Notes under the pieces: generated by a model | The model's database searches: none | The model's input: only the letters and a program-made list of their open reading frames with translations | Told to the model about the DNA's origin: nothing | Shown: positions 5,225 to 50,949 of the stretch, piece by piece | How positions within the stretch are numbered: position 1 is the first letter of the stretch | How the letters are laid out: every line of letters begins with the position of its first letter | Translations under genes and position numbers: made by a program | Source of the DNA: Psammoneis japonica | Taxonomy: Eukaryota | Direction of reading: 5' to 3' | Assembly (NCBI GenBank): GCA_008632985.1 | Contig: QPGO01000009.1 | Span: 682,001-746,000, forward strand | DNA length: 64,000 nucleotides

Positions 5225-5249
5225 AGCAATCATGCGATGCCTCCATGGG

Positions 5250-8590: not shown

Positions 8591-9328
8591 GCGCCGCCTC
8601 TTCGCTTAGCGGTAGCTCAGGACCTTCTACGGATATAGATTTGAGCACGGCGGTCAGTACCACAAGTTCTTGTCTGTTGGGCGCCCATTGTATTCCGTGG
8701 GTTGATGTCTTATTGTAGTGGTGTATTCATTAGGTCTCTGGTCAGATCTACCTTCAAGGGAAGAAGTTTGGCGGTGATTTGTTACAGGGTAACTTTTAGA
8801 ACAATGAATAATGCGTGTTCAGTGTGGTATTGGTAGTTTTGCGGCGTAGAGCATTGGTGTCTGCTTTCCGTCTTGAAATGATTCGTGAATTTCCTTCCAG
8901 ATACACATTCATCTGCAGCTACTACTTCAGAACTCTTGCCACGTCAGGTAACGACCCTGCACCCAGAAAAAGGCCATCATATAATCTTGCTATGGGTGCC
9001 GCGACTCTTCTGAAACTGTGACACATTCACTGGCGCATCTCTTTCGTAAAGCCTCCATGCTGCTGTCTGTCTTCGTACTGCTGGCTTTGATGACTCTTGT
9101 AAATTATCGCTAGAGTGACTTGGCTGAGAGTGCCACCGCAACGGTAGATTCGTTCTTCAACTGCGTACGGCGAGCATTCTGCCACAAAACTCGACACGAT
9201 GAATTGGTGGCTTGCATGGAGAATACGTCACTCCAACTCGTCGTTTATCATCATTCTGTCGTCCATACCGCGTAGATAACCAGCAACCTGCCGGAAAAAG
9301 TGCTGCAAGTATACCTAGCACACCTCAT

Positions 9329-10630: not shown

Positions 10631-10812
10631 TATGATGTACCGGTATGTCGGATGTCGGGCGTTTTTGGCGGGGCAAATCGATCGCCAATCATGTCACGCT
10701 GACGTCATCCTCATTCAAATGCATTCTCGCGCGGTGACTCGCGCGATTTTCAAAATGGCGTCTGTCGCCGTCGACGCCCGCCACGAGCAGATCTTTCTCA
10801 CTTTCTCCGCCC

Positions 10813-14386: not shown

Positions 14387-14699
14387 GCGCGATTTTCAGT
14401 TTGAGTTTAGGTGGCACTAGAATATGAACGAATAAAATTAGACTTTATATATCAAACTAAGAAGAATCTTGTCGTTTCTCTAGCAATCGCAACCCGAGTG
14501 AACTTGTTTTATCATATTGTTGTTGTCAGAAGACATGTAGTTAAGCCGTACTCATACAGTGCTGTGCGAAAACGCTGTTGCTAGCTATTCTAAATTCGAC
14601 GGTGCTTCGTCGGCCAAACGCGTCGCGGTTCGCGCGTGCTCGCGATTTCTTGGACAAGGGGCGGCGTCTGCGATTGGCACGGGCCAAAGTGGAGGGCGC

Positions 14700-16850
14700 C
14701 CCACCTCGTTGGACACCCAGCAGTCGATCAAGCCACCGTGGTGGGACAAGCGCACGACATCGAGGACAATCGATTTGTGCCTTTGGCATGCTCACAGTGG
14801 GCTGCAAAGAGATGGAAACCCTGGAGAAGGAATTGTGTCAACAAGTGGGGCACACACCGAGATTGGGGGGGAGGCTTTGCCTCGACGGACGGGATTTGTG
14901 TGACGCCCTCTCTCTGCCCATGACAAGGAGTGGAAAGATTGTGTGCACCACATTTCATGCAAAATTGTCACTGGTGAAGTGGGGTCCTTGGGTGATGTGA
15001 ATGCCCTGGTGGACCTGTCCATTGTTGACACCTTGATTGAAAAGATGAGCACACCAAATGAGCGGGCAAGAAGCAAGAGAAAAGGCTGTGCATGGGTGAG
15101 AGGGCAGCAAAGCAAGAGACTGTCTCCCATGGAAACAAGAGAACAAGCTGCATCAGCACTCAAGTGGGTTTGTGAGGTCTCCTGTGGTCAAATCATTTTT
15201 GTCAGGAAAAGTCGTCGTCGACCCCCCGAGAGGAGAGCAGTGTGATGAAGTCACAACTGGCACAAAACAGCTGTTGATTGCTGACAAAGTTGCAGCACAG
15301 CATTGCCTTGCTCCTTGGAAAAGACACTGGGTTTCTCCATGATGACACAATGAAAAATGTCAGGGTTGTTTTGAGCTTGTGTCAAAATGTTGGTGGCCCA
15401 AAGAGCATCTGGCACTGAGTCATCCCCAAACAACTTGAGGACATTTTGTTGAATCTTTTGGTGGTCCTCAATTTCTGCCTGGAGGTCATCCCTCAGCCAG
15501 TGCAAACCACAAATTGCATGTCTCAATGGCAGTGTTTTGCTTCATGCCTTGCACCCAGACATCCACCCCATCTTTGCCAAAGCAGTTTCCATGGGTGTTC
15601 AACCATTTAAGAGTTTTCTTGCCTCTGGGCATTGGGCTGGTGCCATGGCTCATTTGTCTCCAATGGAGAATCTGACAGATTTTGCTGTTCTGTTGAACTG
15701 CAGCCGTGCTCCAGTGCAATCTTCGCCTTGATCTCCAATGCTGTTCAAGAAGGCGAGGTTTTTTTGTTGTTGTTTGAGGCTGGCTCAATGTTTTGAACAG
15801 ATCTTTTGTGCCATCTGAGCCAACCCCACAGGCTTGCTCTGTTTGGCATGTTGAACTCCTTCAAATTTGATTGTTTTGAAATTGAAAGGTGGGTGCATGC
15901 ACAAAAAAAAGTTTTGTGCATCACACTTGCCCTTGTTCAACTTGGGAAAAAATTGAATTTGAGCAAGAGTGATGGGAGTCGAGCCTGTGCGCATCACCTG
16001 GAGCTGGAACAGGCCAAAACAAGTGAGATCTAAACAATGGGTCAATCACTTGAGAGAAAAAAAAAGGTTTTTTTCAACAAACATGCAGTGTGCCTTCGCT
16101 TCCAATCAGGCCTTTTTTTGTCATTGTCGCAGAAGCACAGAACGTCAGGACTCTCAGCTCTGGAAGAAACAAGAGTGTGCTTCAGACAAAAGCACAACAC
16201 CCTCTTGGTCAATCTTGGCCTGTTCCAGCTCCAGCTGAAGCACAATCCATGGCATGAGAGGCCAATTTTTGGTGCAGTTTGGCACGTTGAGCTTCTTCAA
16301 ATTTGATCGTTTCAAAAATCGAAAGGTGAGCCTGCACAAAAAAATGAAATTTTCATGCACACGCGTCCTTCAATTTGGGAAAAATGATTTTGAGTGAGTT
16401 TGTTGTGCCAAATCATGCAAAAGTGGGTGCCGGTGATGGGAGTTGAGCCGGCGCGCATCACCTGGAGCTGGAAGAGGTCTCTCATTTCCATGCAGACAAA
16501 GCTCTGAAACAATGCATTCTTGATGAAGGATGGAAGTTTTCAGCACAAGTTCTTGAGTTCAGCTGTCTCAGGAATGCTTGTCTTGTGACTGACCCAACCA
16601 ACCTCTCAATCGGCGAGACAGCCCTTGGCTCATTGTCTTCCTTCCGGACGCTGTCCTCCAGATGATCTCTGAGAGACTCTCTCATGATGATTTTGCTTGG
16701 GATTCAAAACCACACCAACAGTCGATGGTTGGGATGAAATGGGAGAGCTTTCAGTGCTTGATCGAGTTTTGGGTTTTGGTGTTGTGAATGCGAAGAATTT
16801 TTCCAGTCGTGACTGTGCCACAGCAGGACTTCATCGCCGCAGGGCATCCA
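14700..16850. mobile_element. TpA/CpG-depleted repeat domain with nested direct and inverted repeats (probable DNA-transposon relic)
   Basis: Direct repeats 15845-15911 vs 16281-16346 and 15969-16010 vs 16433-16474; perfect 20-bp inverted pair 15998-16017 vs 16215-16234; TA almost absent. Confidence 0.55.
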
Positions 16851-17048
16851 CTGCACCCTGATTGTCAAAGGAACCAAGTCGTTTTCGTTGAAAGAACCGA
16901 CACACCAACACGCCGATCGATTGCACTCACGAAAAAAACGAGAAACGCCAAGGGCGAAGCAGATGTCGAAGAAGACGATGACACTCGCGCAAAGCACAAC
17001 ACTAAACGCATCCAACCAATGAAATAGCACAACAGTGAAGGCATCACC

Positions 17049-17732
17049 ATGTCCATCCGACAAGTAGTACGCCGATATGAGCTTGAGTTTAATCCGCAAA
17101 AGGAATTTCAGGGGTCCATTCCAGAAGCCATGCTCGAGGATGAGTCGTCGGACGAGCGTCACCGAATCCATCGGCAGTGGGCACAATTCACCGTTTCGGT
17201 CAACGCCATGCGCAAAACGAGACGAAAACGAATGGTAAACAAGAACTTACACAAGGCGATCTTTTTGACAGGCATGGAAAACCTTTGTAAAAGCTTTTCG
17301 AGACGGCATTTGAACATCAAGGTGGAATTCAAGAAACATACGTCAAACCGCAAGTTGTATAAATTGGAGCTGGTGAGAATGTCACAAGTTCCTGAATCGA
17401 GTCTGAATGCTCCATATTATGTAGCCGATATACCTCAACTCGTACCTGAAATCGAAGTCGAAGCCGAGCTTATAATTGGAGACGAGGAGGGTGAGAGGCG
17501 CTCCGAATCCCGAGCAGTCTCAGAAGGTTTGGTGACGGCTCAGATTCTTTCGATGACAACAGTGGACGAGCCAATCGTTAGAATTGTTAGCGTAGAGGAA
17601 TCGGAAGCCGGTTCCCAGACGCCCTTTGCGTTTCAAGTGTTAAGAATAGAGGATGAAAAGGACGGGCACGACAATCCCGAGGACGACTCGACTCCTCTGA
17701 TGAGAGTAGTCCTCGATCCCACGAGCTCCTGA
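17049..17732 (+). CDS. Hypothetical protein, possibly the 3' part of a gene whose 5' part (16788-17027) is separated by a stop
   Basis: 227-aa ORF of normal composition, in frame with upstream ORF 16788..17027 across a TAG. Confidence 0.5.
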   Translation: MSIRQVVRRYELEFNPQKEFQGSIPEAMLEDESSDERHRIHRQWAQFTVSVNAMRKTRRKRMVNKNLHKAIFLTGMENLCKSFSRRHLNIKVEFKKHTSNRKLYKLELVRMSQVPESSLNAPYYVADIPQLVPEIEVEAELIIGDEEGERRSESRAVSEGLVTAQILSMTTVDEPIVRIVSVEESEAGSQTPFAFQVLRIEDEKDGHDNPEDDSTPLMRVVLDPTSS

Positions 17733-19902: not shown

Positions 19903-21556
19903 ATGGCTGAAAATAACAACAATGAGAGCATAGCACTGTCTCAAGCAGAAATCACGCCGGTTCCAAGTCCGGTGGTTTCCCCGAAAAAGACGGTGGGCAA
20001 TGCCAATAGCAGTAGCAGCAGTTTAAGAGAAGCCATGTCTGAGATAGGTACTCCCCTTCCTGGTCCACGCAAAGCGATGAGTGGTGAAGCTGTAGCCAAG
20101 GATGAAAGCCGACGCACAAAGATTCTTGTTCGGGTCTTTTCTGGAGCTCTCATGGTACGTAAGATCGTGTATGTGTCGACTTGAAGCACTCGCCACGACT
20201 TAATAATGTTTGGCCTTGTGTCGTGTAGGTATTGACCTTTGCAGCTCTCTTGTACAGTGGGCATATTTATGTATGTGGGCTTGTTGCACTTTCAGAGTTA
20301 CTTTTGGTAAGTCCTCTGAAGTCTGATTTGAAGTGCCGAAAGTGAGCGTAGTCCCTCATCTCTGATGTTCTTTTTTTTAGTTTCGTGAATTGGTTCGGGT
20401 TCGATACAATACATATTTCAATACCATTCAAGATACAATCCCTCTCTTTCGAACGACTCAGTGGATGTGGTTCTTTGTAGCAATCTTTTACACCTACGGC
20501 GACTTTGTTTCAGACATGATCAAATCCAACACGGCACTGCACAAGCTCAGCTTTTATGCACAGTTCAGCATTCCCTTTGCCTTTATTCTCTACAGCGGCG
20601 CCTTTGTGTTGACGATTGCAACCATGCAGACGGGGCATATCAAGTTTCAATTGAATCAACTGTGTTGGACAATTGTGGTTTTGTGTTTAACCGTCGGGCA
20701 GCTCAAGTACATTATGCACAATATTTACAATGGGCTCTTTTGGTTTGCCTTGCCCATTTTGTTGGTGGTGACCAATGACATCATGGCCTATGTGTCGGGC
20801 ATGACGTGTGGACGTAAGTTTATTCAGCGACCCTTTATATCGTTTAGTCCCAACAAAACGTGGGAGGGTTTTATCGGGGGCGGCATTTGTACCATGATTG
20901 CAGCGTGGTTCTTGTCACGGTACTTGGCGCAATTCACGTGGATGACGTGTCCCACGAACGAGTTTACACTTTGGTCGGATGTTTTGGAGTGTGACTTGGA
21001 TCCCATCTTTCATGAGTCTTACAATATCTTTCCGCCGCAAATGTTTGAGCTGCTGCCGGATGCGTTGGTGAGGATGATTCCTGGTATTGTGGAGATTTGT
21101 TCGGTCCATAGCGAGGATGGTGGTGCAGATTCCTTTTTGACGGCGTGTGTTTCGGGAAACCCGAGTCATTCGCATGATCACTTTGAACTCGTCATTAAAA
21201 ATGTCTATCCCGTGCAAATCCACGCTCTGAGTTTGGCACTCTTTGCTTCCCTCGTGGCTCCCTTTGGCGGATTCTTGGCTTCGGCCATTAAGCGTGCCTA
21301 TGGTATCAAGGACTTTGACTCCATCATTCCTGGTCACGGCGGTGTCATGGACCGAATGGATTGCCAGTTTCTCATGGCGCTGTGTACGTGGGTGCACTAC
21401 AATACCTTTGTGAAAATGGCAACCGTCAGCGTGCCGAAGATGCTGTACATGTATAACTTGCTGAGTGAACAGGAGCAAGTGGAATTCCTGGAGCAGATAT
21501 CCAAGGTTGCGGCGGCTAACAAGAAATTTATGAACGTGGAAGAGTATGCATTTTAA
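19903..21556 (+). CDS. CDS1: Phosphatidate cytidylyltransferase (CDP-DAG synthase), 3 exons (about 19903-20154, 20229-20306, 20381-21556)
   Basis: SPNKTWEGFIGG, FGGFLASAIKRAYGIKDF and IPGHGGVMDRMDCQ motifs; GT-AG introns visible. Confidence 0.95.
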
Positions 21557-28259: not shown

Positions 28260-28520
28260 TTGTTATTGTTGTTGACGAGTAGTTTGTAGTTGTCGTAGTT
28301 ACAGTGTAGTTCTCTGTCTTTGGTATCGTGTTGTGACACAAACGAGAACGATTGATGGGTTCGGCGAAAGAACGCGAAGCGGTCGTGTCACAGTGACGTC
28401 CATCTCCGTGCCTCCAGTATTGCTTCTACAGTACAGTTTATGAATACTTGAGTCGTGTGCCGGGATCGCCGCCGCGCGAATCGAAATTCCTTTTTTTGCG
28501 GTTGGGTGGCGCCGAACAGG

Positions 28521-28899
28521 TGCACTGTGCTCGAAGAACGAGTGTAAACGAAAGTAGAACGAAGTTCAAAAAGTGAAAATTATGAGAATTATTTCTACGC
28601 AATCATTTTGGGTTTCTCCGAACGGGTTCTCAATAGCCTAAACCTTTTGTACTGCTCCTACAGACAAAAGGCCTTTCGGAGAATATGATCGTGACAACAG
28701 ATTGTCCAGATGCGATTGATGTTGACACATGAGATGTCAACATCATCGTACGATCGCATTTGCGATTCTTGACATCCGATCACTTCTGTGTGACCGATCT
28801 GTACTTCGTACGAACCCACGATTGACGTACGATTGAAATGTGCTTTTATTTAACACATGGGTGAACACACATGATGCACACATGACAACGCACATTGCA
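28521..28899 (-). repeat. 3' LTR
   Basis: Aligns without gaps to 33325-33703 and 63369-63747; adjacent to the PPT. Confidence 0.97.
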
Positions 28900-28925
28900 C
28901 TCGCCTCCCCAATTGCACATTAGAG

Positions 28926-30019
28926 TCAGTCGTTAAACGGCATTATCCAACGAACATTGACAGTGTCAATAACGTCACCACGTTTGATCTGTGCTGTGCC
29001 ATTGGCATGTGCCGTTGTCATTGCGTGCGGTCCAACACAGGGCTGTTCTAATTTTTGCGAGTCTTTCTCGAGCAGTGTCTTTTCTCCTGCTCTGTGCGTG
29101 TGAGGAGTGCGTCGAGCATTCTCTCGAGCGTCATTTTTATTTGTGATTTCTTGTTTTCGCTGCTGGGTTGATTTCCAGTCTGCGACATGTTGGACGTCAA
29201 ATGTCATGTCTCCATTGAAGACCAGTTGTCCTGGTGCAGCTTGCGCAGTGGCATGACACGCAGAACGCACCGCAAATGCTGCCGCTGATGGCATTCCAGC
29301 GAAAGGATCCTCAGCATCTAGAGGTGCATGTTGCAAATCAAATGTGCGGAGCATGTTCCCCAGTGCTTGATGTGTGCGTTCAATGGCTGCGTTTGCTTGT
29401 GGATTTTGTGTGGTTGTGGGCTTGACTTCAATGCCACAATCATCTTGCACCATTTCTCTAAATTGGTGTCCGACAAACTCACTTCCACGGTCACATGTAA
29501 TTAACGATGGCCAAGGACATCTGCCCAACCATGTTCGTTCTAGGGCCCCAGCAGTCCAGCTGCAGTTGTGGACTCCTCACTTGGGATTTCCACAACTTCA
29601 AACCATCCGGTTGCTGAATCGATCATTGTCAAACATTTCAGGACTGGGGGTTCTTTCTTTCCCTTACGACACATTTTGTATGGCCCAATGAGGTCCACAC
29701 ATGGTCGTTCCCATGGCGCGGATTCTGCGCACTTGGGAGGTAAATGTCCACATTTCTTGTGTTTCTTTTTGAATTTTTGGCACGTCTCACATCTCGACAC
29801 GTATTTTCACATGTCTTCACGCAAGGTGGACCACCACAGGTGTTGTGAGATTGTTTCTTCTGTTCGATTTATGCCAGGGTGAAGAAGGTGCGCATGATGC
29901 CAATCCATCACTGCCTTTTGTGACGTCCTCGGGACAACAATTTTGTCCTTGTGACATGTGAGCAACCGGTCTCGCTCGCCTCCACGAAAAGTCTTCGTGT
30001 GAAACGTCTCATTTGACAA
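28926..30019 (-). pseudogene. Gypsy integrase, frameshifted
   Basis: WHHAHLLHPG..CETCQ (HHCC), VDLIGP, DRGSEF and NPQANAAIER spread over three ORFs. Confidence 0.92.
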
Positions 30020-30034
30020 TTGGGAGAGAATGTC

Positions 30035-32137
30035 TTAGTCCCGTTTTTGTTCACAATCAAGAACTTTGTAATTTAATGGAAAGACATTGTCGTGGGATTT
30101 TGGTGGGACCTTTTCAGCTGGCTCTTCTGTGCTGAGGGTTTCCACAGGTTCTATTTTCTTCACAGCAAGTCGGCCAATCGCATCTGCGACAATGTTTGCC
30201 TTGCCCTCAAGGCACATTGTTTTGGGACTGTGTTCTTCTGTCATTAGACGCCAACGCATGACTCTGTCCGTTGTGAAATTTTTGTGTGTGAGATTTTTGT
30301 GATCCGCACACATGTTTGTCTGTTGGCCAAACAGCACATTGCGGAACTCTTTTAATGTCTCCACTGTGGACAACAGTTCTTTTTCCGTTGCAGTGTGATG
30401 CGTCTGCGCTCCATTCAGCTTGCGGCTGTAGAAGGCAATTGGTCGGTTTTTCTGAGCAATGACCGCCCCCAATTGAGAATTGCTGGCATCGGCACATGTC
30501 TCAAAGGGTGTGTTAAAATTCGGGCATGACAACAGCATGTCTTTGGAGATGATGCGCTTCACATTTTCGAAGGCTTTTTGTTCTGTTTCGGTCCATTGCC
30601 ACTTTGCTTGGGCAGAAGTGAGTTTGGCTAAAGGAGCTAAAACATGAGATCGTCGAGGCCACATGTCTCGATGGCAGTTGATCATGCCGACAAAGCGTCG
30701 CAATTCCTTGCGAGTTTTAGGAGTTGCGATCGCGTGAATCGCTTCTACTTTTTTTGGAATCGGACTGATGCCCTTGCGGGTGACATGAAAGCCTGGATGG
30801 TCTGCTTCGGGTTTAGCGAAAAAGGACTTCTCGGCGTTGACCTTCAATCCGGCTTGTTCCAGGCGTAAGAACACCGTTTCAAGCTTCTTGAGGTGGTCTT
30901 GAAAATCACCTTTTGTGAGACACAATGTGTCGTCAATGTGAGTTCTGACGAACTCCAGACCTGCCATGAGCTCACTCATGTGCTCTTGGAAAACATCTGG
31001 AGCTCCACAGATTCCCATCGGGAGTCTACAGTGCTCATGTTTGCCCCAAGGCATGACGATCGTGCACAAGCGACGTGCGTGCGGCGTCAATTTGACATGA
31101 TGGCATCCCATGTTTAAATCTAGGGACGTTGCATGCATGAAGCCTTCGAGCTTCTGCAGCATGTCCTGAACATTGGGCAGAGGAAACGGAGTGCGAATCA
31201 ACCTCTTGTTTGGCTCACGAAAGTCGGACAAGAACCGAACTCTGCCATTTTTCTTGGGTTGAATGAAGGTTGGAGCCGCCCATTCAGAACAGTTTGTTTT
31301 TCTTGAGACTTTCAACTTGCACAGTCTTTCAACCTCCTTACGAGCAGTCGCCTCCAAGGCTTGTGGCGCGGGAAATGGTTTGGCATGGTGCGGACTCACG
31401 CCCGATTTCAACTTCAAATCCACCGGTTTCCCGGTCAATTTGCCCAGAGAACCATCGAAAAGGTTTTCAAATCTTTTTAAGAGGAAGTTCAGCTGCTTCT
31501 GCTCTTCAGGAGTTAGATGAGCAGCTGCTGCAGTCACATTGTTGAGGTTTGCAGCGTGACAGTCTGAGTCAAGGATCCGATTGACCCTGTCATTGAGACC
31601 AATCACTGCATGAGATTCCTCAATGTGATCGGCAATCAACTTAAAAACATCGGCATCGAAGAGTGCATCAACATTCTTCATGGGAGCAGCTGCATCTTCC
31701 CATTTAATCTCTTCATTCGAGAAGTCCAACATCATCCCAAGACTTGACATTAAGTCGCGTCCCATGATCACATCACAACGACTCGAAGAAGAAGGGGAGT
31801 TGTCAACATTTGCCGTTGTTTCGATCATCTTGTGTTTGTCAAATTCGGGCAAGGAGAATTGGATCTTACATCGACCATCAGTCGTAAAGAGCCCTCCTTT
31901 GGTTTCCCAGAGTTTGGTGGCGGATGCTTTGGTTCTGAGTTTCCGCATGAATTTGCGCAAAATTATAGTTGACGATGTTCCGCCATCGAGGAGAATGCGC
32001 AGAGGCTCATTTTTCGCTTTGCCCAATGAAGCATTGTACAGGCGACGACTGCTGGACCAGTGCGAATTACTTTGGCCCTTTTTCTGGGCTTCCCAATGTC
32101 CAGCAGAGCGCAAGACTCCTCTTGCGGTGCAAGTCAT
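30035..32137 (-). pseudogene. Gypsy pol (protease, RT, RNase H); catalytic YxDD mutated to HIDD
   Basis: LLDGG, WAAPTFIQPKKNG, LDLNMG, RLPMG, HIDD, DAS, EKELL and DHKNL motifs; only 3 Tyr in 700 aa. Confidence 0.95.
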
Positions 32138-33324
32138 TCCTCAGAGTCACTGCGCATCATTTTTTCAAACTGACAATTCTCCTCGTCAAGGGCATCAGAA
32201 TCACAATCTTTGTTCTTGTGCTTTTTGTCATTGTTCGAGGAACTCGCTTTGAGTGTTTTTTGAACTGCTTGGATCGCCATGGCATTCAACTCTTCTTTGC
32301 GAGCGGCGTTGTCGTTGTCGCGACGAGACCACGTGCGATTGCCATTTGAATGGCACCGTCTCGGGTCGGGTTCACAGTTCCCACGGCATTCTTTCACAAG
32401 TCTTTTGATCGACCAGCACTTGTCCGTGTTGTGAGTGGATTTCTCGCACAAAATGCACCACTTCTCGGACTGAGATTTTTCGGCACCATGTTGGTGACCA
32501 TTTTTGGAACCACGTTGGGAACCACTCTTGGCTTTTGATGCAGCACCACCACTGCCATCAGCCTTGGCATGAATGCCATCGAACATGTCTTCTGCGACCT
32601 CTGGGCGCTCCAAGAACTCAACCAACTCGTCACAGGTGTGTTTCAAAATTTCGAAACCCTGGACGGTCGACTGACGCTGCCACTTTCGAGGTGCAAGATT
32701 GAAGAGGATGTCCTTGAGCTCATCGTCCTCAATCTTCTGATCCTTCCCAAAGGGAGGATGGAACTTGAGGTCTTCGTTGACTTCCTGGACCCAAGCAGCA
32801 ATTTTGCGTACTTTCATGGACTCCGGCTTCTTGAGATCACGACGCAAATAACGTTTCTGCACCGAAAGTGCGCTCTTGGGAAACACATGCCTCGTGAGAT
32901 GTTGCAGGCATTTCTCGAAGCTTCCTTCTGCAGATTCGTCTTCAAGGTTCGCTGCCGCATTCTCGAAAGCACGTAGAGCGTCTCCTTGGAGTAACATGCG
33001 CATGAGACGAAACTTGTCAGATTGCTTCCTGACACTCTGGCCCACTGGAAGTTGATCGTAGCTCTTGAGAAATTCGATGAACTTGGGGACACCTTGTTTC
33101 TTGTAGCACTCGACATTGATGGTGCAGGTGCGGCTGTCCTTCTTCTCGGGATGAAAACGTTGCTCCATCTTGAGGTGCTGGCTCGGTTTGAGGCTCTTCG
33201 GCTCGGAGTTCGATTCCAGCGGTTGAGGAACGATTTTCTCCTGCCTTGACGAAGTTTTGGCGTTGGTTGCATGAGGTGAAAGCTTCATCTTGAACTTATT
33301 GCCTTCTGTGGTGTGCACACACAA
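32134..33324 (-). CDS. Gypsy gag with CCHC zinc knuckle
   Basis: QKRYLRR and CILCEKSTHNTDKC (CX2CX4HX4C); lies immediately inside the 5' LTR. Confidence 0.85.
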   Translation of the reverse strand: MCVHTTEGNKFKMKLSPHATNAKTSSRQEKIVPQPLESNSEPKSLKPSQHLKMEQRFHPEKKDSRTCTINVECYKKQGVPKFIEFLKSYDQLPVGQSVRKQSDKFRLMRMLLQGDALRAFENAAANLEDESAEGSFEKCLQHLTRHVFPKSALSVQKRYLRRDLKKPESMKVRKIAAWVQEVNEDLKFHPPFGKDQKIEDDELKDILFNLAPRKWQRQSTVQGFEILKHTCDELVEFLERPEVAEDMFDGIHAKADGSGGAASKAKSGSQRGSKNGHQHGAEKSQSEKWCILCEKSTHNTDKCWSIKRLVKECRGNCEPDPRRCHSNGNRTWSRRDNDNAARKEELNAMAIQAVQKTLKASSSNNDKKHKNKDCDSDALDEENCQFEKMMRSDSEE

Positions 33325-33703
33325 TGCACTATGCTCGAAGAACGAGTGTAAACGAAAGTAGAACGAAGTTCAAAAAGTGAAAATTATGAGAATTGTTTCT
33401 GCGCAATCATTTTGGGTTTCTCCGAACGGGTTCTCAATGGCCTAAACCTTTTGTGCTGCTCCTGCAGACAAAAGGCCTTTCGGAGAATATGATCGTGACA
33501 ACAGATTGTCCGGATACGATTGACATTGACACATGAGATGTCAACATCATCGTACGATCGCATTTGCGATTCTCGACATCCGATCACTTCTGTGTGACCG
33601 ATCTGTACTTCGTACGAACCCACGATTGACGTACGATTGAAATATACTTTTATTTAATGTATACATAAACATATATAATACGTACATAACAACGCACATT
33701 GCA
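33325..33703 (-). repeat. 5' LTR
   Basis: Direct repeat of 28521-28899, followed by the TSD. Confidence 0.97.
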
Positions 33704-33952
33704 CAGGACGGCATAACTGAGAGCAAAGCACCGTAGACTGTGGGCTTCAATCCCCGTTCTTGAGACAGTTTTCATCATTGTCGTGGCTGTGACTTTCACT
33801 CCCTTCATTGTTTTTCGTTCCTCCGTTTTCGTCTGGTGTCGTTCACTTCCCTCCTTTTCCTTTTCTTGCAGAGAGGGCAATCTCTCTGGCGGGGCTCTGC
33901 TCTGGCTCTAGAGAGCCAGCCAGTCTGACACTCCCACCCAACATCCAAGCTG

Positions 33953-36788
33953 CTTCATCCGGCAAGTGACAATTGTCCATGAGGAAACACCGTGTCATTT
34001 TTTGGGTTGTGCAATGCAGTGCTGTTTCCACATGTTTTTTGTTCACGCGCCATTTCGTGCCACCTTTCGTGCTGCCACAAAAACCTGCTGTGGACGGCCC
34101 CATTGAACCACTTCTTTTGGCCCAACCACAGCATCAAATGCCAATTTGATTCAATGGCATGACAGTGCAGATGCTCCAGTGCCGACTCCAAGTGCACGCT
34201 CCTGTCAATTCTCTGCCAGAGATGGCACCTTCACTCCAAAAGAACAGAGATGCTCCAGGGGTGCTTTGGCACCGAACAGCTCCCGACTCTGTTCTGGCTC
34301 TGCCCTGAGACACACTTCAGCATCCTCACATGATTGGCCCACATTGTTTGCCAACATTGAAAACTCATTCTCACTCAAAAAATCTGCTGGATTGCACCCA
34401 TCCCCAATGGCGTCTGGCTTTTGGGTGCCGCAGATTCTGTTCGCTCCTTCCCCGGATCAAGGTGCTCAGTCACCTCCACTCCCACGGGATTCTGCATCTC
34501 TTCTGAGTCAGAAACACACTAAAAAAACTTCCAAATTCCACAGTGAAGTGATTGTGAATCCTTTGTGAAAAATCATCCCTCCCACCACACTCAAAAAAAC
34601 AGTGTTCGCCACTTGACTGTGGTGCACAAACGACCGGGCAATGCCTCCCTCTGGACAGCAATCACAAACACAACAAATGGATGCCCACAGTTGCTTCCCT
34701 TGCAAACGTCAACCACTGTTTTCAAGCCCTTGGTCTTCAGTGACCATCTTGGCCATTGCTGGAAAGAGCATGCATCCTCAATGTTGGCCAGTGGGAAAGC
34801 TCCCAACCATGCTGAGTGAATTCATGATCAACGCAGGCCAAGAGAACTGAGTCAATGTGTGGCATTGCATTGTCACACCGGAGCTGAAGATGCACTTGTT
34901 TCCCAACATTGTTCTCCACCCTCTGAGACAGTGCTTCCATCTTTGTTAACAGAACATTGCAGAAGTGATGCAACAGCTCAAACTTTAGATTTTGTTGCAT
35001 CCCTGAGTTTGATCCAGCAACTCTTGGATGACAGAATGATCCATCAACTCTGTGCACATGGCAATGCAAGCAATTCTTTGTTTTCAGCTTTCCACTGGCA
35101 CAAGCACAATTGACCTTGTGCGTGTGGCCCCCTTTCTGAAAATCATTTTTGGCAGGCACAAATGCTGTGGTTGCAAGTGCCAAGACCTCACCAACATGAT
35201 GTTTGTGGTGCACTGCATGTGGCTCCGGAATGCATCCAAGGAAGAGAACAGTTTTGTTGTGTTGGCAAACCACCAATGAGTGTGACCACTTTTTGTTCAT
35301 GTGCAAAACAAGAACTTGAGTTGTCAAAGCTGTCATCTTGGTCCCATGCCAAAAGACATGCCGCACAATTGACCAGCACTGCTTTTGTGTGTTGTCGAGT
35401 GCAAGCAGCAGTGAGCACAGGGAGGGCCCAAGTGCTGGCGCATGATGATTCTGGTGGGGACTTTGCAAAACACATCAACATGACATGTGCTGCAGGTTTC
35501 ACATTTGTGTTTCTGCCAACAACCTGACAAAGCAAGCTTTCTCTGTGTTGTTCTTCATCTGTTTGTCTTCCTCAAAATTTTTCCTGCCTTGCCTGTCAAA
35601 ACAACCCAGTTTGCCATTTCAACATTTCAGCTCCTTGGACAAATGGCAGATGGCTCTCTGCAGCAAGTGACTCAAAGGGTTGTTTCAACTCAATGTCATC
35701 ATCAAACCATTCCCCATGATTGTTGTTGGCTCTTTGGCACCACTTGAGAAGTGCTCACATGGTGTGTGGACCTGACCCTGCTTGTTGTCCAAGTTCAATG
35801 CTGTCACACCAGTGCCACACCGCTTCTTCTTTGACATGTCATTGTTTTGCTTGAGAACCCATTTGTGCATCCTGGGTGCCAGTCATCTTTTTCATCACAC
35901 TCCAAGCAGGTGCATGATCAATGAGTGGATTTGCCCCCCTTTGTGGATTTCACTTGGTGTCAATGCATTTGCAACATTTTGGGTGTCACACAGCAGCCTT
36001 CTCACTGGTGACAGCAGCTGAGATTTTGGCTTTGGGTGCAGACAACTGGCAGCAGAAGCCACTGCCTGGTGAACCCACCCTTTCTCCTTCACTTCACCCT
36101 GTCTGGGGTGTTTCAACATGGCACTTCTTTCCAATCCCACTCATGACCCAATCTTCTTTTGCCTTTAGAAGCAGACCTGTGGTGCCTTTTGGTCTTTGTT
36201 GTGTTTCTGTTGTGCCCACAGTTTTGCTGCCAATGCTGTGGAATCAAGCTTGTTTGTTGTGTTCTGTCGTCAATGTCGTCAATGGCCGTTCAGCTTCAAA
36301 TTTGTCAATTGCTGATGAACACTTGTAAAGAGCCACCAATGCTGCAGGAGAGAGTCTCCTTGTGACAATGTCAAGACTGAGTCTGTTGTTGAATGCATGC
36401 AATGCATTTGCTTGACCATTGGCAGCATTGAAGCCCATGGCAAAGCCAACTCGACCTTTGCTGTCAGGTCATCCCGGCAGCACAGCATTGCGGCATGCCA
36501 CACTGCACCCCGCCAATGCACACCAGCTGAGTGGATGCTTGGATGTGGTGGAGAAAGAGGGTCCATGGTGCCGAGGCACATCATCACATCAAGCAGCAGT
36601 TGATGGCATGAGCAACACATCTGATTGTCACTGCAGCAGCTCCATGTGCTCTGATGGTGGTGGGCCATGGATGAACTTTTCCCTCCAAGAAAATTTCTTG
36701 CTGCACAGCAGAAGCATGACTGCACTGCATGGCCCAAAACAAACAACATGGCATTTTGTCATGGACAATTGTTGCTTGCCAGAGGAAG
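33953..36788 (-). mobile_element. Tc1/mariner-superfamily DNA transposon relic with Stowaway-like TIRs
   Basis: TIRs: cttcatccggcaagtgacaattgtccatga at 33953 versus the reverse complement of the right end cttcctctggcaagcaacaattgtccatga (to 36788). Decayed DDD motifs on the minus strand: HMNKKW (from H.DEKW), CDNAMPH, NIEDACSF. Flanks TG and CA are consistent with a mutated TA TSD. Confidence 0.8.
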
Positions 36789-38229
36789 CACCTGCTGGCA
36801 GCTGGAACAATCAACAAATGACAATGGGAGGTGCGCGTCACTGGACAAAGACGACTCCCATCAGATTCGACTCTCAGACTGACTGACATGCCAAAAGTCA
36901 TTTCGACAGAAAGCAAACGCTTCAAGCCAAGGCTGTGGCTGATTTGTTTGCAAGTCTCAAAGTCTCAGGTGCCACCCCAAAGAAAACACAAGCAAGCTCA
37001 GTGTGTGGATGGGGCAAGCAGTGCGGTCTGACCACAACCAACCCAGAAAACCACTGTGTGGTTGCCATGATTTTGGGTGTGGATCTGCACTTTGATGTTG
37101 ACGAGAGAAAAAGGTGTGGTTGCCATGAGCATTGCTGCAGACTCCAACTCTGACAGCAACAAAGGGAATCCTGGTGGGTTTCTTGACATTGATGTTGTTG
37201 CAAAGCAACGTGACACAATTTTTGGGGACTTGAGAAGTGGTGGCAGTGGCGCCTCAGTGCAGCAAAGTGCAGCAAAGCACCGAGCGCAGATGCAGTGCCA
37301 TGCTGCATCATGGTTGAGTTTGCTCATGCTCTTTTTCAGACAAGAGAGAATGAACATGTGAGGCATTCAATGCATTTGACATTCATTGTCATCAATTAAA
37401 ATGTGAGTGTGCAGATGAAGAGGAAATCCGGGCCACACCAATCATTTGGTTGGTGGGAAGCATGGTCCAAAGCACATGGACAAAACTGTGGATCCATGGT
37501 CTCGCCGACTGCACTGCGCTTTTTTGTGCTCCATTGGCTTGGTGCCTCAGTTGCATTGAAGGCATGTTTCAAAAACACATGGGTGCAGTTGATGCAGGCT
37601 TGCACAAATGTTCTGGTCATTCTGCAGGAGTCATCACCACCTGCACAGCTAAAACCCAGAAAGACATTGTCGTTTTGCCAGGTGTTGGATGTGCTTGCTA
37701 GATCCAGCTCAATGACCACTTCCACAAGATCATTTTGTGTTAGCATGATGCTGTAGCAACTGCGCGTTGTTGCCCTTGCCGGCCATCTGTGTTTCCAACA
37801 AGTGACCTCTGTGTCAATGTTGTTGCGTGCACGTTCAATGTTTGGCTTGCTGTTTGTAAGGCTCTCTAATGGATGCTGGAACATGGATTGATTGTGGAGT
37901 TCCACCACAGCGTTGCTTCTTTTGTCTTCTTTGAATGGTCCTTGCTTCACTTGCTGCTTTCTCAGTTGTTGCCATGGTGTCTTAAAACTGAGGACAAACT
38001 GGAGTGAAGTGGGTGTGCAACAATGGACATTTGAACAATCAACATCCTCTGCTCTTGCAGCCACTTCTGTGGTCCCAGCTAAGTCCTCTGCCAACTGCAG
38101 CCATGAGATCATGCTTTGATTGTCTTTCAATGCTGCCATTGCCATGTCCGCCATGGTTTGCCTTTTGTGCTGCCAGCCCTGAGCAAGTCAACCCCACCAG
38201 AAACAGCGTTCAGTCGCCACAAAAGCTTC

Positions 38230-39725
38230 CATTAAGAGTCACCTGGCAATTCACACTCTTCCAGATCAACCACAATCGGTTTTGTTCTTCTGAACTCATC
38301 ACGAAGCATCATGTGATTGCAAAAATTTGGTCCCCGGTCATCGCCATCCACATCCAAATGACGAAAGCCACACTTCTCTTCAAGCTCCCACAACACTTCA
38401 CCCTAATCTTCAAGACGAGCACATTGAGGCGGTGCCTCCACCATTTGCATGCCAAAATAGATCACACCAAAACCTTCGGCAATGAACTTTGGTTCCAGAA
38501 CAAGTCGACCCCATGCATCCTTCAAATGTTCACAAGCATTGATCTCTCGTTCAAACGCTTTCATGCCATTGTTCTTGCAAGTGTCAAAGAGTTTCAGCGC
38601 AACTGTTTCTCCCTTCCACGTCCCACTGAATGTTGTCCCATGACGGCCATGCCCAATTGGCTTGCCCACTTCAAAATGCCGAGAGTCACCGCAGAGACAA
38701 TTCCTGCAGCGTGAGACCGAGATTTTGATTTTCTTCCACCTGTCCTCCAAGATTTCCTTCAAGAACTGGAAGAGTTTCTTTTTTTAGAATTGCTCTGATT
38801 CAGTCGAGGATGGAGCTTCGCTTTCAATTTGTCCGGCGTGCCTTCAAGCCAGGTCCGAGCAAGAGCAGCCTTGTCAAGAGGTGGCTGAGTGTCATCACGT
38901 CCACTTGCGTAGAAGAAAGCCCATGCGCAGAGGCAGTTCTCTTGCCCGACAAACCATGCATCACTTGTGTGCACCTTCTCTCCCCCAGTTTCGGCATCCC
39001 GGTGCATGAGAACAAAACAAGTTCTCGCTCCACTTGTGAGAACACCATGTCGACAACTGTCAAGCACCATGTGTCTGAGAATTTGTGAGACGGGGTGACA
39101 AACATGAGACCACCCCAGGGGGCGTCGCTGTCTGTCAGTTCTGTCTTCCGACGTTTGATCAACAACCTCTCTTGCATGGTTGCATTGCGCGACCACTTCT
39201 TGCACTGTCATTGGCAGGGGCAAGTCATGTGTTGACTTGGATGCCCCCACAACTGTTGGTTGGGTTGCCTGCCATTCTGTTGAGAAGTCAGGGGCACCCT
39301 CGCGATTTCTCGAACCCCTGACTAAATTGCCGATTGGGCCCAACTGCTGGAGCGGTTGCAGTGCGAATCTTGCCAAATGATTCTCCTCATCCCTCTCGTC
39401 ATGGCACTCAATGTCATCCGCAAGACTTTGCTTCATCCCACTCACCATGTGACATCCCACTCTTCCATCTCCATTGGCACTGAAACTCGTCACTGGTTCT
39501 GCAAATCCGCGCCAGGTTTCGATCCTCAGTGGACAATGTCAATTGGCGTGACCCTCAGATGCCGGACTGTGGCACAATGCGAGTTCATCACTGGCAAGGA
39601 GACAGGGTGAGGCAACGCAAAGCGACAAAAACTCCTCGTGTGTCAGCTCTCGAAATGGAGAGACTTCATCAAGGCAACACAAGGCGATCTGTCTCTTTCT
39701 CTCTTGCCGTGCCGCACGTTCATTG
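38230..39725 (-). pseudogene. Crinkler-like nuclease-fold + protein-kinase gene relic
   Basis: HPVSQILRHM..RHGVLTS..RTCF followed by IGHGRHG..WKGETVALKLFD..FEREI.ACE.L..WG.LV, D.RGPNF and VVDLE; frameshifted, with Tyr replaced by His/Cys. Confidence 0.6.
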
Positions 39726-41073
39726 ACTTCATCATCAGCAAGAATGATTCTTTGCTCACTGTTTGTGCTGACTCCCAAATCTGATCGTTGTGACAGATCA
39801 AGATTCAGGACGATCCCACTGTTGCTGTTCTCCTGAAAATGGACATGGAAATCGGCAATGGCGCCCGCAAGCTCTGACTGTCCGAATCATCCATGTTTTG
39901 CGTCCTGATCACCACATGCCAGTGCGCGATCGATTGATGTTTTACTGAGCGAGATGTGAGAAGAAGCGAGGAATCATCGCTGTGGCGGCGCCGAGCGGGC
40001 GGTGAGGCTCACGATCACTCTCCAGCCATCATGACTGTCCTCAACCCGTGACTCAAGGGTGCATGAGGTGTGCCCAGGATTTTCAGTCACGAGTTAAGAC
40101 ATCAGAACCTGTTGATATGAAACTGGGACAAACACGTCTGAATGGCCTCTTTTCTTCTACAGCACCGGCAAAACACCCTGCAATTGTGAAATCTGAACTC
40201 TGGGAGCATTTTCACGGGTGACAGAGAGCAAAACAGACTGAAGAAGCAAGGGGTGGATGTGTCCTTCAGTCCCCGTTCTCAAGACAGTTTTCATTGTCGT
40301 TGTGCTTGTGACTTTCGTTCCCTTCATTGCTTCTCGTTTCTCTGTTTCCTCAGCCAGAGTGAAGGTGCGAGTGGCGCTGCAAGGGAAGATTCAAACTTTC
40401 AGTTGTCAAGGCAGAGGGCACTTGCACTCCCGCCCAACATCCAAGCTGCCTCTCTGGGGCCCTGCTCTCTAGCTGCTAGCTCTAGAGCAACAAACAAGTG
40501 ACAGTGGGAGGTCCATCACTGCTAGATGCCTCCTCAGTGGCAGGTGAAGACGACTCCTCCCACCGGATTCGACGACTCTCAGACTAACGAACAGACACCG
40601 GCGGCATAAATCCAAATGGAGAGTCATAGAAGAGTCATTTCGATAGAACAATCTTCATTGTCTTTCCCTAAGTTAGTCCGAAAATGTCACGGCACTGACA
40701 ATTGTCCTAAATGTCATTCCTCCGGGGTCTTTGTAGATGACTTAAAGACGGTGTCAAAAAAGTGTTTAAATCGGTCATCACCACAAAAACAATCGCATTC
40801 TCACTAATTGACAATACCGTTAGTGACCTCCCCTAAGTGATCGCCAAGACATTTCCATTGTAGATTTGTCCGATTACGATCACAATTTGAGGCACAAAAC
40901 ACTCCAAACGCAACCGGTTGTGCCAGCAGAGAACCGCAACAGAGCTCTCCGAACGCGTTGCAGTCATAATCCGGTTGGAGCAGAGCTTTAGCAGCATCCT
41001 TGCTGTTTGTTTGTTGCCATTTACTTCGTCCTTTGACAATATACAGAAAAGCTTCTCCTTCCGGTTTACCAGG

Positions 41074-46513: not shown

Positions 46514-46749
46514 GATGCTCTGTCAATGTGAATGTCATCGTCGATTTTCAATTTCAGTGTGAGGCCAGAGGCCAGAGTCGTGAGGCGTGAGGCGTGAGGC
46601 CGCAGGTTAAAGGCTACAATACCGGAGTCAATTGTTAATTTCGAATAAAGGAATTATGAAGATTTCGTATTCGTGTTCCATAAAGAAAAGGTGACCCTCT
46701 CAACAAAACGAAAGTGGTGCAATGCGATACCAACCAAAATCCTCACCCA

Positions 46750-48560
46750 AGAAATGTTGACAGAGTGCCTGATGTTATCCACACTTCCCCAATGCACGGC
46801 AACAAAATGTGCCCAAAACAGCGTGGCTTGTTGGGGCCCTGAAAAAAATTCACAGGGACCAAATCCCACCAAACTGCACACTTGGGCTTGTTGGGGCTGC
46901 GTCATGTCAAGGAACATGGCTGGGCAGGTGAATCTGCCAAACTGCAGAAAAGAGGTGCAACACCTCTTGCAAGATGCCACAGCAGTGATGGAGTCTCACC
47001 ATGCTCCTCTCTCCTGGATCACAGCTGACTCAACTGAAAACACTCTTTGAAGATTTTGAGTGCTTTGCGGGTGCTGCACGCCACCATGGCAGGAGTCCAT
47101 TTCCTTTTTGATGTGTTGCGACATTGCCAGTGCATCAACACCAAAGATCCAAAAGCCCAACCTGCAAAACTGTGCTGGTGCAGTCTGGGCATTTGCATCC
47201 ATCAGACACTCATCTCTCCACTCTTGCTTTTTGTAATGCAACTTTGCTTGCCAAAATTTTGTGCATTTGAAATTGAAACAATTTGATCCTCAAGAGGTTG
47301 TGAGTGCCCCACAGGTGACTGCTGAAGTCAGGCACTTGCATCCACTGCTCTTTTTGTCACAAGTTGGGGAGATGCTCAACAGCTGCAAAACCTTGCCAGC
47401 ATCGTTTGGGCACATGTGCAGCCATCTTGCACACTTGTTTTCTTTGCTTGTTGACACACACCATTGCCAAAGAATCCATTTTGAAACTGGATGAGTTCAC
47501 ATCCCAAGCCATTTCCAACACAGCTGGAACACATGGTGGTGTGCAATTGGAAAGCTTTTTTTGTTGCTTTTCAGTCAGCCCAAAATTGCAGATGTGTCAT
47601 TGTCGAAGCAAGCTGGCACAGCTCAAGCCTCACGACTTTGCTTTTTTAAGTGTCTTGTGGGCATTTGCTGCTGACAGCCACTCACCCATCTTTTCTGCTT
47701 CTTGGCAATGTTGCAAATGAGTCAGATCAAAAAAAATGATGTGACAAGCAAACAACCAGTGGCAGGTCTCTGTGTCCCCTCTTGTGGGCAATTGTCTGGA
47801 ACGACAATTTGCAGCAACTTTCTTGATGCTGGCTGTGTCTAGACCAGCATGTGTTTGGAATGAGACAAACAGAACTCAGCACATGATTGGAGCAACTTGA
47901 CTGCCAATCAAGCTCCATTCAACATCCATCAATTGGCTGCCCTCTTGTGTTGACATGGTGAAACCCCAGTTTTTGGAAAATGCCCAGAAGCACTTGTGCC
48001 AGCAATCCTTTGTTGCCCTGTGCTGCAGTGCCCATCTCCCTGTTTGTCTCATTCAAACAGCTGTAACTTGGCTTGGAGCAGAAAAAGAAAATCATCCCAG
48101 CTTGCATTGCCAGTCTCCTTGTTTGTGTTCTCCAAGCCCCTTGTCTGCCAACCCCAGCAACTGGAGATGGGTTTTGACACCATGTTTGTGAGAAGAATCT
48201 GCAATTTCAAAACCAAGGCCATGACAACTCTCTGCATTGTTGTTGTTCCTTGAAGCTCCCTGTGCATGGCACAACACAAGAAATCATGGAGTTTTTGCCC
48301 TGCAGACCCCTCACAGAGTTGCGGGTTGGAGCAAAGCTGCACTTTCGGTGAATCAGACAACAAGTTCCTCTGGATGGCCACTTTTTGTCTCTGTCAAGTG
48401 TGCATGCCATTGGGGCAAGGTGAGCTGTGATGGAATGCATCTCTCTCCAGAATGACACTTGTGCGTGCTTGGCAGCCAGGGCCAGGTGAGTTGTGATGAT
48501 GGACTGCCGGTGGCCCTGCTGCACGCTGCACCTTTTGCCACTTGCGCACGTGCGGCACAC
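46750..48560. other. TpA/CpG-depleted domain, content unidentified
   Basis: Near-absence of TA and CG, with an abrupt return to normal composition near 48580. Confidence 0.75.
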
Positions 48561-48775
48561 ACAAGAGAGTCTTGCTGTTTACCTCTTGCGACAGTCGAAT
48601 GTAAAGAGAGGAAGTTGTCGTTATCTTGATACTTCTCATAGTTGTAGATTCCTTCACAAGAGTAGTTTCCCCCTTGAATCAAAAAATTACCCCGTTCCTC
48701 CATTCAAAGTTTAATCATACAACAACCACAACACGACTTTACAAAAGCCACTAATTTCAACAAAACACGCGCTAG

Positions 48776-50878: not shown

Positions 50879-50949
50879 ACAATGCGTGAAACACCGTCGG
50901 CATTTTGTGACGATGGCGCCACCCTTTGCCACACTTTATGTCGCTGCAA

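Follow-up and report, generated by a model that had tools for sequence, protein, structure and literature searches.

Which process can strip a transposon of nearly all its TpA steps, when does it act and what sets its limits? The question is raised by a Ty3/Gypsy long terminal repeat (LTR) retrotransposon, hereafter copy A, on the reverse strand at 28521-33703 of a 64,000-nucleotide stretch of Psammoneis japonica DNA (contig QPGO01000009.1 of assembly GCA_008632985.1, positions 682,001 to 746,000), which was analysed as a whole and is called the window. An original prediction, made from the letters of this stretch, had noticed that conserved tyrosines of the polymerase were replaced by His or Cys and had proposed a directional A:T to G:C hypermutation at TpA, acting on repeats as a 'reverse-RIP' system in allusion to the repeat-induced point mutation (RIP) of fungi. 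We consider it likely that a host process mutates the chromosomal DNA of transposons and inserted blocks from TpA to TpG or CpA, after integration and within bounded domains, by a chemistry and a guidance that we infer below. What the window itself shows is the signature of the change and its direction, when it arose, its symmetry between the strands, its confinement to certain regions and its bias towards certain flanks. The interpretation given in the original prediction is largely right, save for the claim that the process is undescribed and the implication that repetition triggers it.

Loss of TpA and of conserved tyrosines in copy A

Copy A was delimited and classified by means of its LTR pair, Pfam domains, homologues and TpA observed/expected ratio (o/e). 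Its borders are exactly those originally predicted: the 5' LTR (33325-33703, reverse strand) and the 3' LTR (28521-28899, reverse strand) are both 379 bp long with TG..CA ends and have a TpA o/e of 0.71 and 0.50, respectively, and the element is flanked by a 4-bp target-site duplication, CAGG on the forward strand, at 28517-28520 on the left and 33704-33707 on the right. The coding part, all on the reverse strand, consists of a presumed gag open reading frame (ORF) of 411 amino acids (aa) with 4 Tyr (32137-33369), for which a Pfam search gave no match, a pol ORF of 701 aa (30038-32140) with reverse transcriptase (RT) and RNase H domains (Pfam RVT_1, RT_RNaseH_2 and RT_RNaseH), and an integrase region (28929-30034) in three frame-shifted open pieces (29810-30034, 29543-29806 and 28929-29576). 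The integrase pieces hold 2 Tyr in 379 aa and gave no match in a Pfam search; the region aligns to the integrase part of intact homologues, which carry rve (PF00665) after RNase H, and retains the motif DRGSEF in the form ITCDRGSEF. Copy A thus has the TG..CA LTRs, the target duplication and the order gag, then RT, RNase H and integrase of a Ty3/Gypsy element. Judged by its sequence it is non-functional, as the YxDD box of the RT reads HIDD (30929-30940) and the integrase is split over three frames. No RNA datasets containing copy A were found among the matches listed. The insertion lies exactly between normal host DNA and an older element of 6.6 kb with diverged terminal direct repeats (junction at 33704), a position that suggests nested or edge-targeted integration.

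The eleven peptide motifs quoted in the original prediction were all found in the translations, HIDD, MGCHH, KHEH, MINCHR, LSCP, EEHSP, FREPN and EADHPGF in the pol ORF and KCGHLP, ITCDRGSEF and PCVGPH in the integrase fragments, and its count of 3 Tyr in about 700 aa agrees with the 3 Tyr, 29 His and 17 Cys that we counted in the 701 aa. This composition is set apart from that of related proteins: among 950 protein homologues at E<=0.001, the Tyr fraction is 0.028-0.053 in all 120 that were listed, compared to 0.004 in copy A. In order to obtain the direction of change, we compared the pol of copy A with 40 of the 120 listed homologues, which are 48-59% identical to it, at 308 columns with a conservation of at least 80%. 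Among 17 conserved Tyr only 2 survive in copy A, 9 having become His and 6 Cys, and among 21 conserved Ile 10 survive, with 6 changes to Val and 3 to Thr. Altogether 58 substitutions fall on conserved columns, of which 29 fit TpA to TpG or CpA only, 4 fit a TpA change alone or together with a CpG change, 1 is explained by CpG to CpA and 24 by neither; the last are ordinary divergence from relatives that are only about 50% identical. The conserved Tyr, Ile and Leu columns thereby give the direction A:T to G:C at TpA that had been predicted. All 12 A to G changes at a first codon position are preceded by a T that ends the previous codon. Since these contexts span codon borders, the context is a dinucleotide of the DNA and not a codon.

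At the nucleotide level, the TpA o/e is 0.26 for the whole of copy A and 0.18 for its internal part, compared to a background of 0.59 (standard deviation 0.09, minimum 0.40; 29 bins of 1 kb) and a normal left flank of 0.54. Many CpG survive, as originally stated, with a CpG o/e of 0.83-0.90, the interior being at 0.83. All 18 related Gypsy loci that we retrieved from metagenomes and one metagenome-assembled genome have a TpA o/e of 0.50-1.18, therefore low TpA is not a trait of the clade. Selection against UpA, or the composition of the source, was considered as a cause and excluded by the lost catalytic Tyr of the RT, by the TpA context across codon borders and by the normal TpA of these 18 loci. 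Three of the metagenome loci (L004, L015 and L016) have a CpG o/e of 0.05, 0.10 and 0.08, respectively, at a normal TpA o/e of 0.60-0.63, and so show decay of the methylation type in which the TpA process has no part.

Mutation of both DNA strands after integration

At integration, both LTRs of an element are identical, and their differences date from the time thereafter. In copy A, 27 of 380 LTR columns differ, 26 of them by transitions, and the differences affect 23 of 103 shared pyrimidine-purine (YR) steps compared to 2 of 174 other sites. In 18 of these 23 YR steps TpA stands against TpG or CpA, in 3 CpG stands against TpG or CpA and in 2 TpG stands against CpA. Per base and relative to other sites, the frequency of change was about 25-27-fold at TpA and about 5-fold at CpG. 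Taken together, 18 of the 23 LTR differences at YR steps and 33 of the 58 pol substitutions fit TpA to TpG or CpA.

A second copy of the same family, copy B (63369-64000, reverse strand), comprises an LTR and the integrase end and is cut by the end of the window. Its identity to copy A amounts to 89% at the nucleotide level and to 99.84% in purine/pyrimidine space; over all LTR and copy comparisons, the identity in purine/pyrimidine space is 99.7-99.8% where nucleotide identity is 89-93%. Copies A and B differ at 43 of 170 YR steps and at 8 of 292 other sites, and their differences include 20 double differences of TpG versus CpA, in which, therefore, a single ancestral step had a different outcome in each copy. 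In order to polarise these changes, outgroup parsimony with copy B was tried and dropped: B is mutated at the same TpA sites as A, so that parsimony would misread parallel losses as changes from CpA to TpA. The LTR of copy B is mutated over its full length (TpA o/e 0.34), and it is followed by about 100 bp (63271-63368) that match the leader behind the 5' LTR of copy A; one LTR seems to be common to two tandem elements at this place.

On the sense strand of pol, we counted 18 changes of TpA to TpG and 15 of TpA to CpA, in agreement with the prediction that both strands are hit. This balance and the LTR differences exclude editing of an RNA genome. The change arose in DNA after integration, on both strands about equally.

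As a control for repeated host DNA, we used a duplicate pair of 1.4 kb, C1 (49323-50764) and C2 (61826-63250), whose members are 86% identical and 12 kb apart. Their divergence is 11.6% at YR steps and 11.3% elsewhere and comprises 75 transitions and 48 transversions; their TpA is normal and there is no YR bias. The segment encodes an ORF with a weak similarity to SRPBCC/Polyketide_cyc2-like proteins (E 2e-4). A decayed third copy, C3, lies at 53514-55034 inside a TpA- and CpG-poor block. Its use for polarised spectra against C1 and C2 was rejected because of their excessive divergence (63% identity); C3 has lost about 8 of 9 TpA sites, at a background change of 20-40%.

Polarity of the losses in the LTRs

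For the comparison of the two LTRs of copy A with each other, TpA was taken as the older state. The 5' LTR has 5 TpA losses relative to the 3' LTR, all at LTR positions 240-309, and the 3' LTR has 16 losses relative to the 5' LTR (13 TpA and 3 CpG), 15 of them at positions 16-192 and one, a TpA, at 373. Divided at position 200, the first part (1-200) shows 15 losses in the 3' LTR (12 TpA and 3 CpG) and none in the 5' LTR, and the remainder (201-379) shows 1 in the 3' LTR and 5 in the 5' LTR (Fisher p=0.0003; p<=0.006 at the four cuts tried). The zone that was hit consists of the interior, the U3 of the 3' LTR and the U5 of the 5' LTR, and coincides with the stretch that the transcript is expected to cover. 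At the 5' LTR, the untouched U3 adjoins an old depleted block, which disfavours simple spreading from this neighbour. The LTR halves were spared despite a higher copy depth, which disfavours pure homology sensing.

The same findings bear on duplication as the trigger, which the original prediction implied and for which the window gives no support. The family counts about 100-200 copy-equivalents, yet the C1/C2 pair at 86% identity is unaffected and the high-copy LTRs were hit only on their interior-facing halves, their outer halves being spared.

TpA-poor blocks across the window

In order to see how far the depletion extends, windows of 400 bp with a TpA o/e below 0.25 were merged into blocks. 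This resulted in seven TpA-poor blocks that sum to 26.0 of the 64 kb and have borders sharp to within 250 bp. These borders, the normal flank of 0.54 and the background of 0.59 +/- 0.09 confine the depletion to discrete regions of presumably foreign or mobile origin. The older block at 33701-40600, with copy A at its edge, has a TpA o/e of 0.07 and a CpG o/e of 0.41; direct repeats at its two ends, near 33739-33828 and 40258-40347, show a divergence of 11% in purine/pyrimidine space. The oldest-looking block, 50801-57200, contains C3 and has a TpA o/e of 0.05, a CpG o/e of 0.11 and a TpG plus CpA o/e of 1.89. Another block poor in both steps lies at 46701-48600 (TpA o/e 0.05, CpG o/e 0.20), a practically TpA-free block with 8 TpA in 2.5 kb and a CpG-poor core at 14601-17100, and a TpA-poor zone at 2751-7200, of which 5751-7000 has lost TpA and CpG. 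The remaining part of this zone, 2751-5750, has a TpA o/e of 0.06-0.35 per 250 bp at near-normal CpG. It carries ankyrin-repeat ORFs at 2491-4272 and 4122-5180 (Ank_2, E 8e-32 and 3e-18) with 1.1-1.2% Tyr, and represents either host-like genes hypermutated beside the dead block 5751-7000 or foreign DNA itself.

Among the 16 dinucleotides, only TpA and CpG drop and only TpG and CpA rise in the blocks. The fraction of YR steps is 0.228-0.246 in the blocks compared to 0.244 elsewhere, and such constancy is expected if only transitions within YR steps occur. The four older blocks together contain 1952 TpG and 1938 CpA. ApA and TpT are not depleted, with o/e values of 1.26/1.20 in the old blocks, 1.23/1.24 in copy A and 1.15/1.12 in the background. 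The TpA-poor zones are wider than the CpG-poor cores: TpA is low at normal CpG in 2751-5750, 16751-17000 and 39501-40000, and loss of CpG without loss of TpA occurs in no bin of the window. This bears out the prediction that TpA loss is separate from CpG decay, and we read the series of blocks as the outcome of rapid mutation at TpA, accompanied in the same domains by decay of CpG at a lower pace.

A mobile origin could be identified for copies A and B only, and the old blocks have no recognisable domain. A tblastn search of the window with seven intact Gypsy homologues found nothing beyond these two copies, and a Pfam search of 50 of the 54 block ORFs of at least 110 aa gave only noise at E<=0.05, the other four lying in the ankyrin zone. 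By the codon table, a change of TpA to TpG or CpA can make no stop codon and erases TAA and TAG, and long ORFs therefore persist in the blocks. Such ORFs are not evidence of genes, and gene finders will call false genes in blocks of this kind.

Faster loss of TpA before a pyrimidine

The TpA steps that remain in the blocks are not a random sample. Relative to background density, their retention is 0.58 for TTAA, 0.36 for CTAA, 0.22 for both CTAG and GTAA, 0.14 for CTAC, 0.07 for ATAA, 0.06 for ATAG, 0.05 for GTAC, 0.03 for ATAT and 0.02 for ATAC (153 TpA in blocks and 1555 in the background; chi-square p=7e-20). The order of loss is TAT > TAC >> TAG > TAA, with TpA before a pyrimidine lost fastest. 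A model fitted by hand, with one rate per strand that depends on the 3' neighbour of the A (T > C >> G > A), accounts for the six mixed contexts. When the 34 between-copy events are read on the strand of the mutated A, position +1 is a pyrimidine in 28 and position -2 a purine in 23, and the TpA survivors in copy A show the same flank bias relative to the related loci (p=3e-4).

Read support and size of the family

Whether raw reads carry the window's letters had been named in the original prediction as a point on which it could fail, and here the outcome was mixed: 806 of 5164 read contigs are at least 99% like copy A, and only a fraction of 0.49 of its sampled words is present in one run of accurate reads. 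Word depth in this run is about 57-65 on the flanks of copy A and 5600-12000 on its interior, which suggests a family of roughly 100-200 copy-equivalents. The variation among the family copies in the read contigs consists of transitions at 685 of 769 variable places. We further compared copy A with the majority letter of the read contigs at 40 listed places, out of 784 variable ones, at which the two disagree; most copies are themselves mutated, so the majority is not a clean ancestor. At 34 of these 40 places, a depth of 36-748 remains without the majority letter, compared to 57-65 on the single-copy flank, and at 6 no read depth remains for the window letter.

Sense-strand A to G changes at ApA that are private to copy A relative to the read majority were found at 28768, 29580, 29653, 31690, 32360, 32873 and 33035, and one such change lies on the other strand. 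This set may reflect a separate, strand-specific process before integration, such as reverse-transcription error or RNA editing, or subfamily variation.

Proposed mechanism and alternative explanations

In the mechanism that we propose, A:T pairs at TpA would be converted to G:C on either strand at a rate roughly 25 times that of other sites per base, and proteins would be inactivated by missense changes of Tyr to His or Cys, Ile to Val or Thr and Leu to Pro or Ser. CpG would decay more slowly to the same products, most simply via deamination of 5-methylcytosine, until TpA and CpG are nearly gone and TpG and CpA have doubled. The chemistry may be deamination of adenine to hypoxanthine by an enzyme of the TadA/ADAT type, and the guidance may be by transcription or RNA. 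The tRNA adenosine deaminases TadA and ADAT2 act on the A after U33, the bacterial substrate tRNA-Arg having U-A-C-G, and the evolved TadA of DNA adenine base editors had an early preference for Y-A-C. The U-A-C context of these enzymes resembles the rule of T-A-pyrimidine seen here. To our knowledge, no natural TadA or ADAT enzyme mutates chromosomal transposon DNA as a defence. TpA is self-complementary, so the sequence cannot separate a lesion on A from a lesion on T; we favour adenine deamination because of this tRNA deaminase context and because an ADAT2-like candidate is put forward for the alga Bigelowiella natans in a preprint that is discussed below (Mettrop et al., bioRxiv 10.64898/2026.01.13.699255).

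With the same targeting of domains, the damaged base might instead be the T of TpA, oxidised by a TET/JBP-type enzyme to 5-hydroxymethyl- or 5-formyluracil, which mispairs with G and gives T to C. In dinoflagellate DNA, 5-hydroxymethyluracil is concentrated at TpA, and 5-formyluracil promotes mutation of T to C. An A to G on one strand is a T to C on the other, so the counts fit either base, and the flank rule can equally be stated as a purine 5' of the mutated T. There is no sign of such an enzyme or base in the window, and the authors of the B. natans preprint prefer adenine deamination by an ADAT2-like candidate; we regard a thymine lesion as unlikely. Rather improbable, in our view, is a single system that attacks both the A of TpA and the C of CpG, for example a dual A/C polynucleotide deaminase. 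It would account for the confinement of CpG loss to TpA-poor domains within the window and for the roughly fivefold rate of CpG differences in young copies (3 of 50 CpG site-copies versus 2 of 348 base-copies), and the preprint refers to ADAT2 enzymes with activity on both A and C of DNA. Against it speak the TpA-poor zones with normal CpG, the loci L004, L015 and L016 that lost CpG without TpA, the presence of a C5 DNA methyltransferase gene in the window and the mutations in B. natans, which lie nearly all at A:T pairs. This gene is a 707-aa ORF on the reverse strand at 232-2352 whose residues 381-691 match the domain of C5 cytosine DNA methyltransferases (PF00145, E 3e-47) and whose 380-aa N-terminal part is without a match. 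It has 19 library relatives, the best of them 40% identical, and one weak match is a fungal DIM-2-like protein; its product may contribute to the decay of CpG in the blocks nearby.

The original prediction had named error-prone repair synthesis by Pol eta, recruited to the T:G mismatches that arise from 5-methylcytosine deamination, as a candidate. Pol eta has the signature WA to WG, which includes TpA to TpG, and the blocks do lose CpG. The loss of ApA that this signature predicts is absent, since ApA and TpT remain near background in copy A and in the old blocks, TpA loss comes earlier and is wider than CpG loss and occurs where CpG is intact, the LTR pair shows 18 TpA against 3 CpG losses and there is no strand bias, so that we consider this candidate very improbable. 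We give equally little credence to an artefact of assembly or base calling, in which modified bases of silenced DNA would be miscalled and TpA and CpG read as TpG and CpA. The missing half of the sampled words, the 6 places without depth for the window letter and the restriction of the read comparison to copy A leave room for it. For copy A it is unlikely in view of the 806 closely matching read contigs, the 34 places that keep their depth without the majority letter and the predominance of transitions; three Tyr-free relatives come from three other sources, and the 11% divergence in purine/pyrimidine space of the terminal repeats of the older block fits real age. In B. natans, the mutations were called from Illumina reads. 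The least credible alternative, and a most improbable one, is ADAR-like A-to-I editing of the retrotransposon transcript, fixed by reverse transcription. ADAR hypermutation of viral and retroelement RNA in animals is alike in giving A to G with U or T 5' of the edited A. It acts on RNA, on one strand and before integration, and prefers G as the 3' neighbour; the changes seen here are on both chromosomal strands and after integration, with a 3' preference of T > C >> G > A. Moreover, LTRs of one insertion that were identical at integration differ at TpA sites, T to C is about as common as A to G on the sense strand (15 versus 18), and the same loss is seen in blocks with no recognised retroelement. 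A resemblance of the favoured 5' U neighbour to ADAR is mentioned in the preprint, and the 7 private sense-strand changes at ApA against 1 on the other strand could be of this kind, perhaps as a separate pre-integration process.

Several observations weigh against post-integration mutation at TpA as the whole explanation. The evidence is the standing sequence of one window, with the other copy-equivalents of the family outside the alignment, and the polar LTR pattern consists of 21 events in one element with a cut point chosen after inspection. The interior of copy A (0.18) is far more TpA-depleted than its LTRs (0.50 and 0.71), and part of the interior loss may predate the insertion, having been inherited from an already mutated source copy. 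Copy B, whose mutations fall on the sites that are changed in A, does not serve as an outgroup for polarising the changes. Of the 40 positions at which the read contigs almost uniformly disagree with copy A, no more than 6 are TpA to TpG or CpA, 11 are CpG to TpG or CpA and 7 are A to G at ApA on the sense strand. Lastly, the flank rule is not evident among the Tyr to His events, of which 4 of 9 have the favoured flank.

Relation to known systems and occurrence elsewhere

Mettrop et al. (bioRxiv 10.64898/2026.01.13.699255, 14 Apr 2026) describe de novo mutation of TpA to TpG or CpA in integrated DNA of nucleocytoplasmic large DNA viruses (NCLDV) and virophages in the chlorarachniophyte B. natans. 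In 15 mutation-accumulation lines, 231 of 302 nuclear point mutations fell into one NCLDV and one virophage region, and 230 of these 231 were A to G or T to C, all 230 at TpA. A site mutated at about 6e-7 per generation, within a span of about 1e-7 to 1e-6, in a subset of the lines. According to the preprint, TpA-depleted coding sequences of B. natans are enriched for reverse transcriptase and DDE domains, 1-kb windows poor in TpA and rich in CpA plus TpG cluster in its genome, and an ADAT2-like adenosine deaminase is proposed. The process described here is of the kind shown de novo in B. natans: A:T is changed to G:C at TpA, giving TpG or CpA by strand, in discrete regions derived from foreign DNA. 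The claim that it was undescribed must therefore be withdrawn. In the literature searched, this preprint on one alga is the one prior report of targeted A:T to G:C hypermutation of chromosomal DNA, and a full-text search, with most subscription journals outside its scope, found no report of TpA-directed hypermutation outside B. natans, diatoms included.

The two cases differ in that B. natans is a chlorarachniophyte (Rhizaria) and the host here, by the named relatives of a host gene, is most likely a diatom. This gene, for a CDP-diacylglycerol synthase (20381-21553), has best homologues that are 79% identical; the named ones are from Attheya (72%), Seminavis (73-74%) and Nitzschia (67-68%), and none from B. 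natans was listed. They also differ in that the mutations of B. natans occurred de novo in single-copy viral inserts, and those described here are inferred from an LTR retrotransposon of high copy number and from older blocks, with a deeper depletion (TpA o/e of 0.03-0.07, compared to a Rho of 0.45 for the NCLDV region of the preprint). The diatom host, the flank rule, the co-decay of CpG and the polar LTR pattern are additions to the preprint, from the accessible text of which they are absent.

Fungal RIP, as in Neurospora and others, is likewise a ruin of transposons at the level of DNA that is restricted to transitions, specific for a dinucleotide and limited to bounded domains, and the occurrence of TpA hypermutation beside decay of the cytosine-methylation type is a further likeness. 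Its direction is the opposite: RIP, which depends on duplication, a premeiotic stage and an enzyme of the RID type, changes C:G to T:A, chiefly in CpA, so that TpA and stop codons arise, whereas here TpA is destroyed, with a TpA o/e down to 0.03-0.26, TpG and CpA are raised, conserved TAY codons now read CAY or TGY and no stops are made. Decay of CpG via 5-methylcytosine gives the same products from CpG in the older blocks (CpG o/e 0.11-0.41) and acts alone in L004, L015 and L016. It cannot remove TpA, and here it trails the TpA loss and occupies a narrower core.

The best 150 of the 106,550 library representatives that match pol include three Tyr-free Gypsy polymerases, namely P0285 (NCBI), P0310 (ENA) and P0401 (JGI), which have His or Cys at 12 of 17, 10 of 12 and 10 of 10 of their conserved-Tyr columns, respectively. 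A metagenome scan with P0401 and a genome scan with P0285 yielded only relatives that are 27-65% identical, and not the contigs from which these proteins come. Going by these protein sequences, the signature exists in other public assemblies. Its presence in a probable diatom suggests that the process is not peculiar to one species, with which the three polymerases agree, and the phenomenon may be widespread in marine algae. It is conceivable, albeit rather doubtful at present, that diatoms and chlorarachniophytes, perhaps algae of the stramenopile-alveolate-Rhizaria (SAR) group widely, share a defence by a transcript- or RNA-guided DNA adenine deaminase that turns T-A-pyrimidine into T-G-pyrimidine over the transcribed span of transposons and integrated viruses. 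If true, nature would have its own equivalent of the adenine base editors used in laboratories, and the defence would mirror fungal RIP, with inactivation by missense changes and no stop codon at all. A natural DNA adenine mutator would be of interest to base-editing research, and the flank rule and the transcript-shaped zone of hits allow concrete predictions about the biochemistry and the targeting. Diatoms dominate ecologically, and with some of them amenable to genetics, knockouts of candidate deaminases or base-modifying enzymes are conceivable.

Host genes and sequence quality

The host genes in the window are long uninterrupted ORFs, and the window contains a single N, at 61205.

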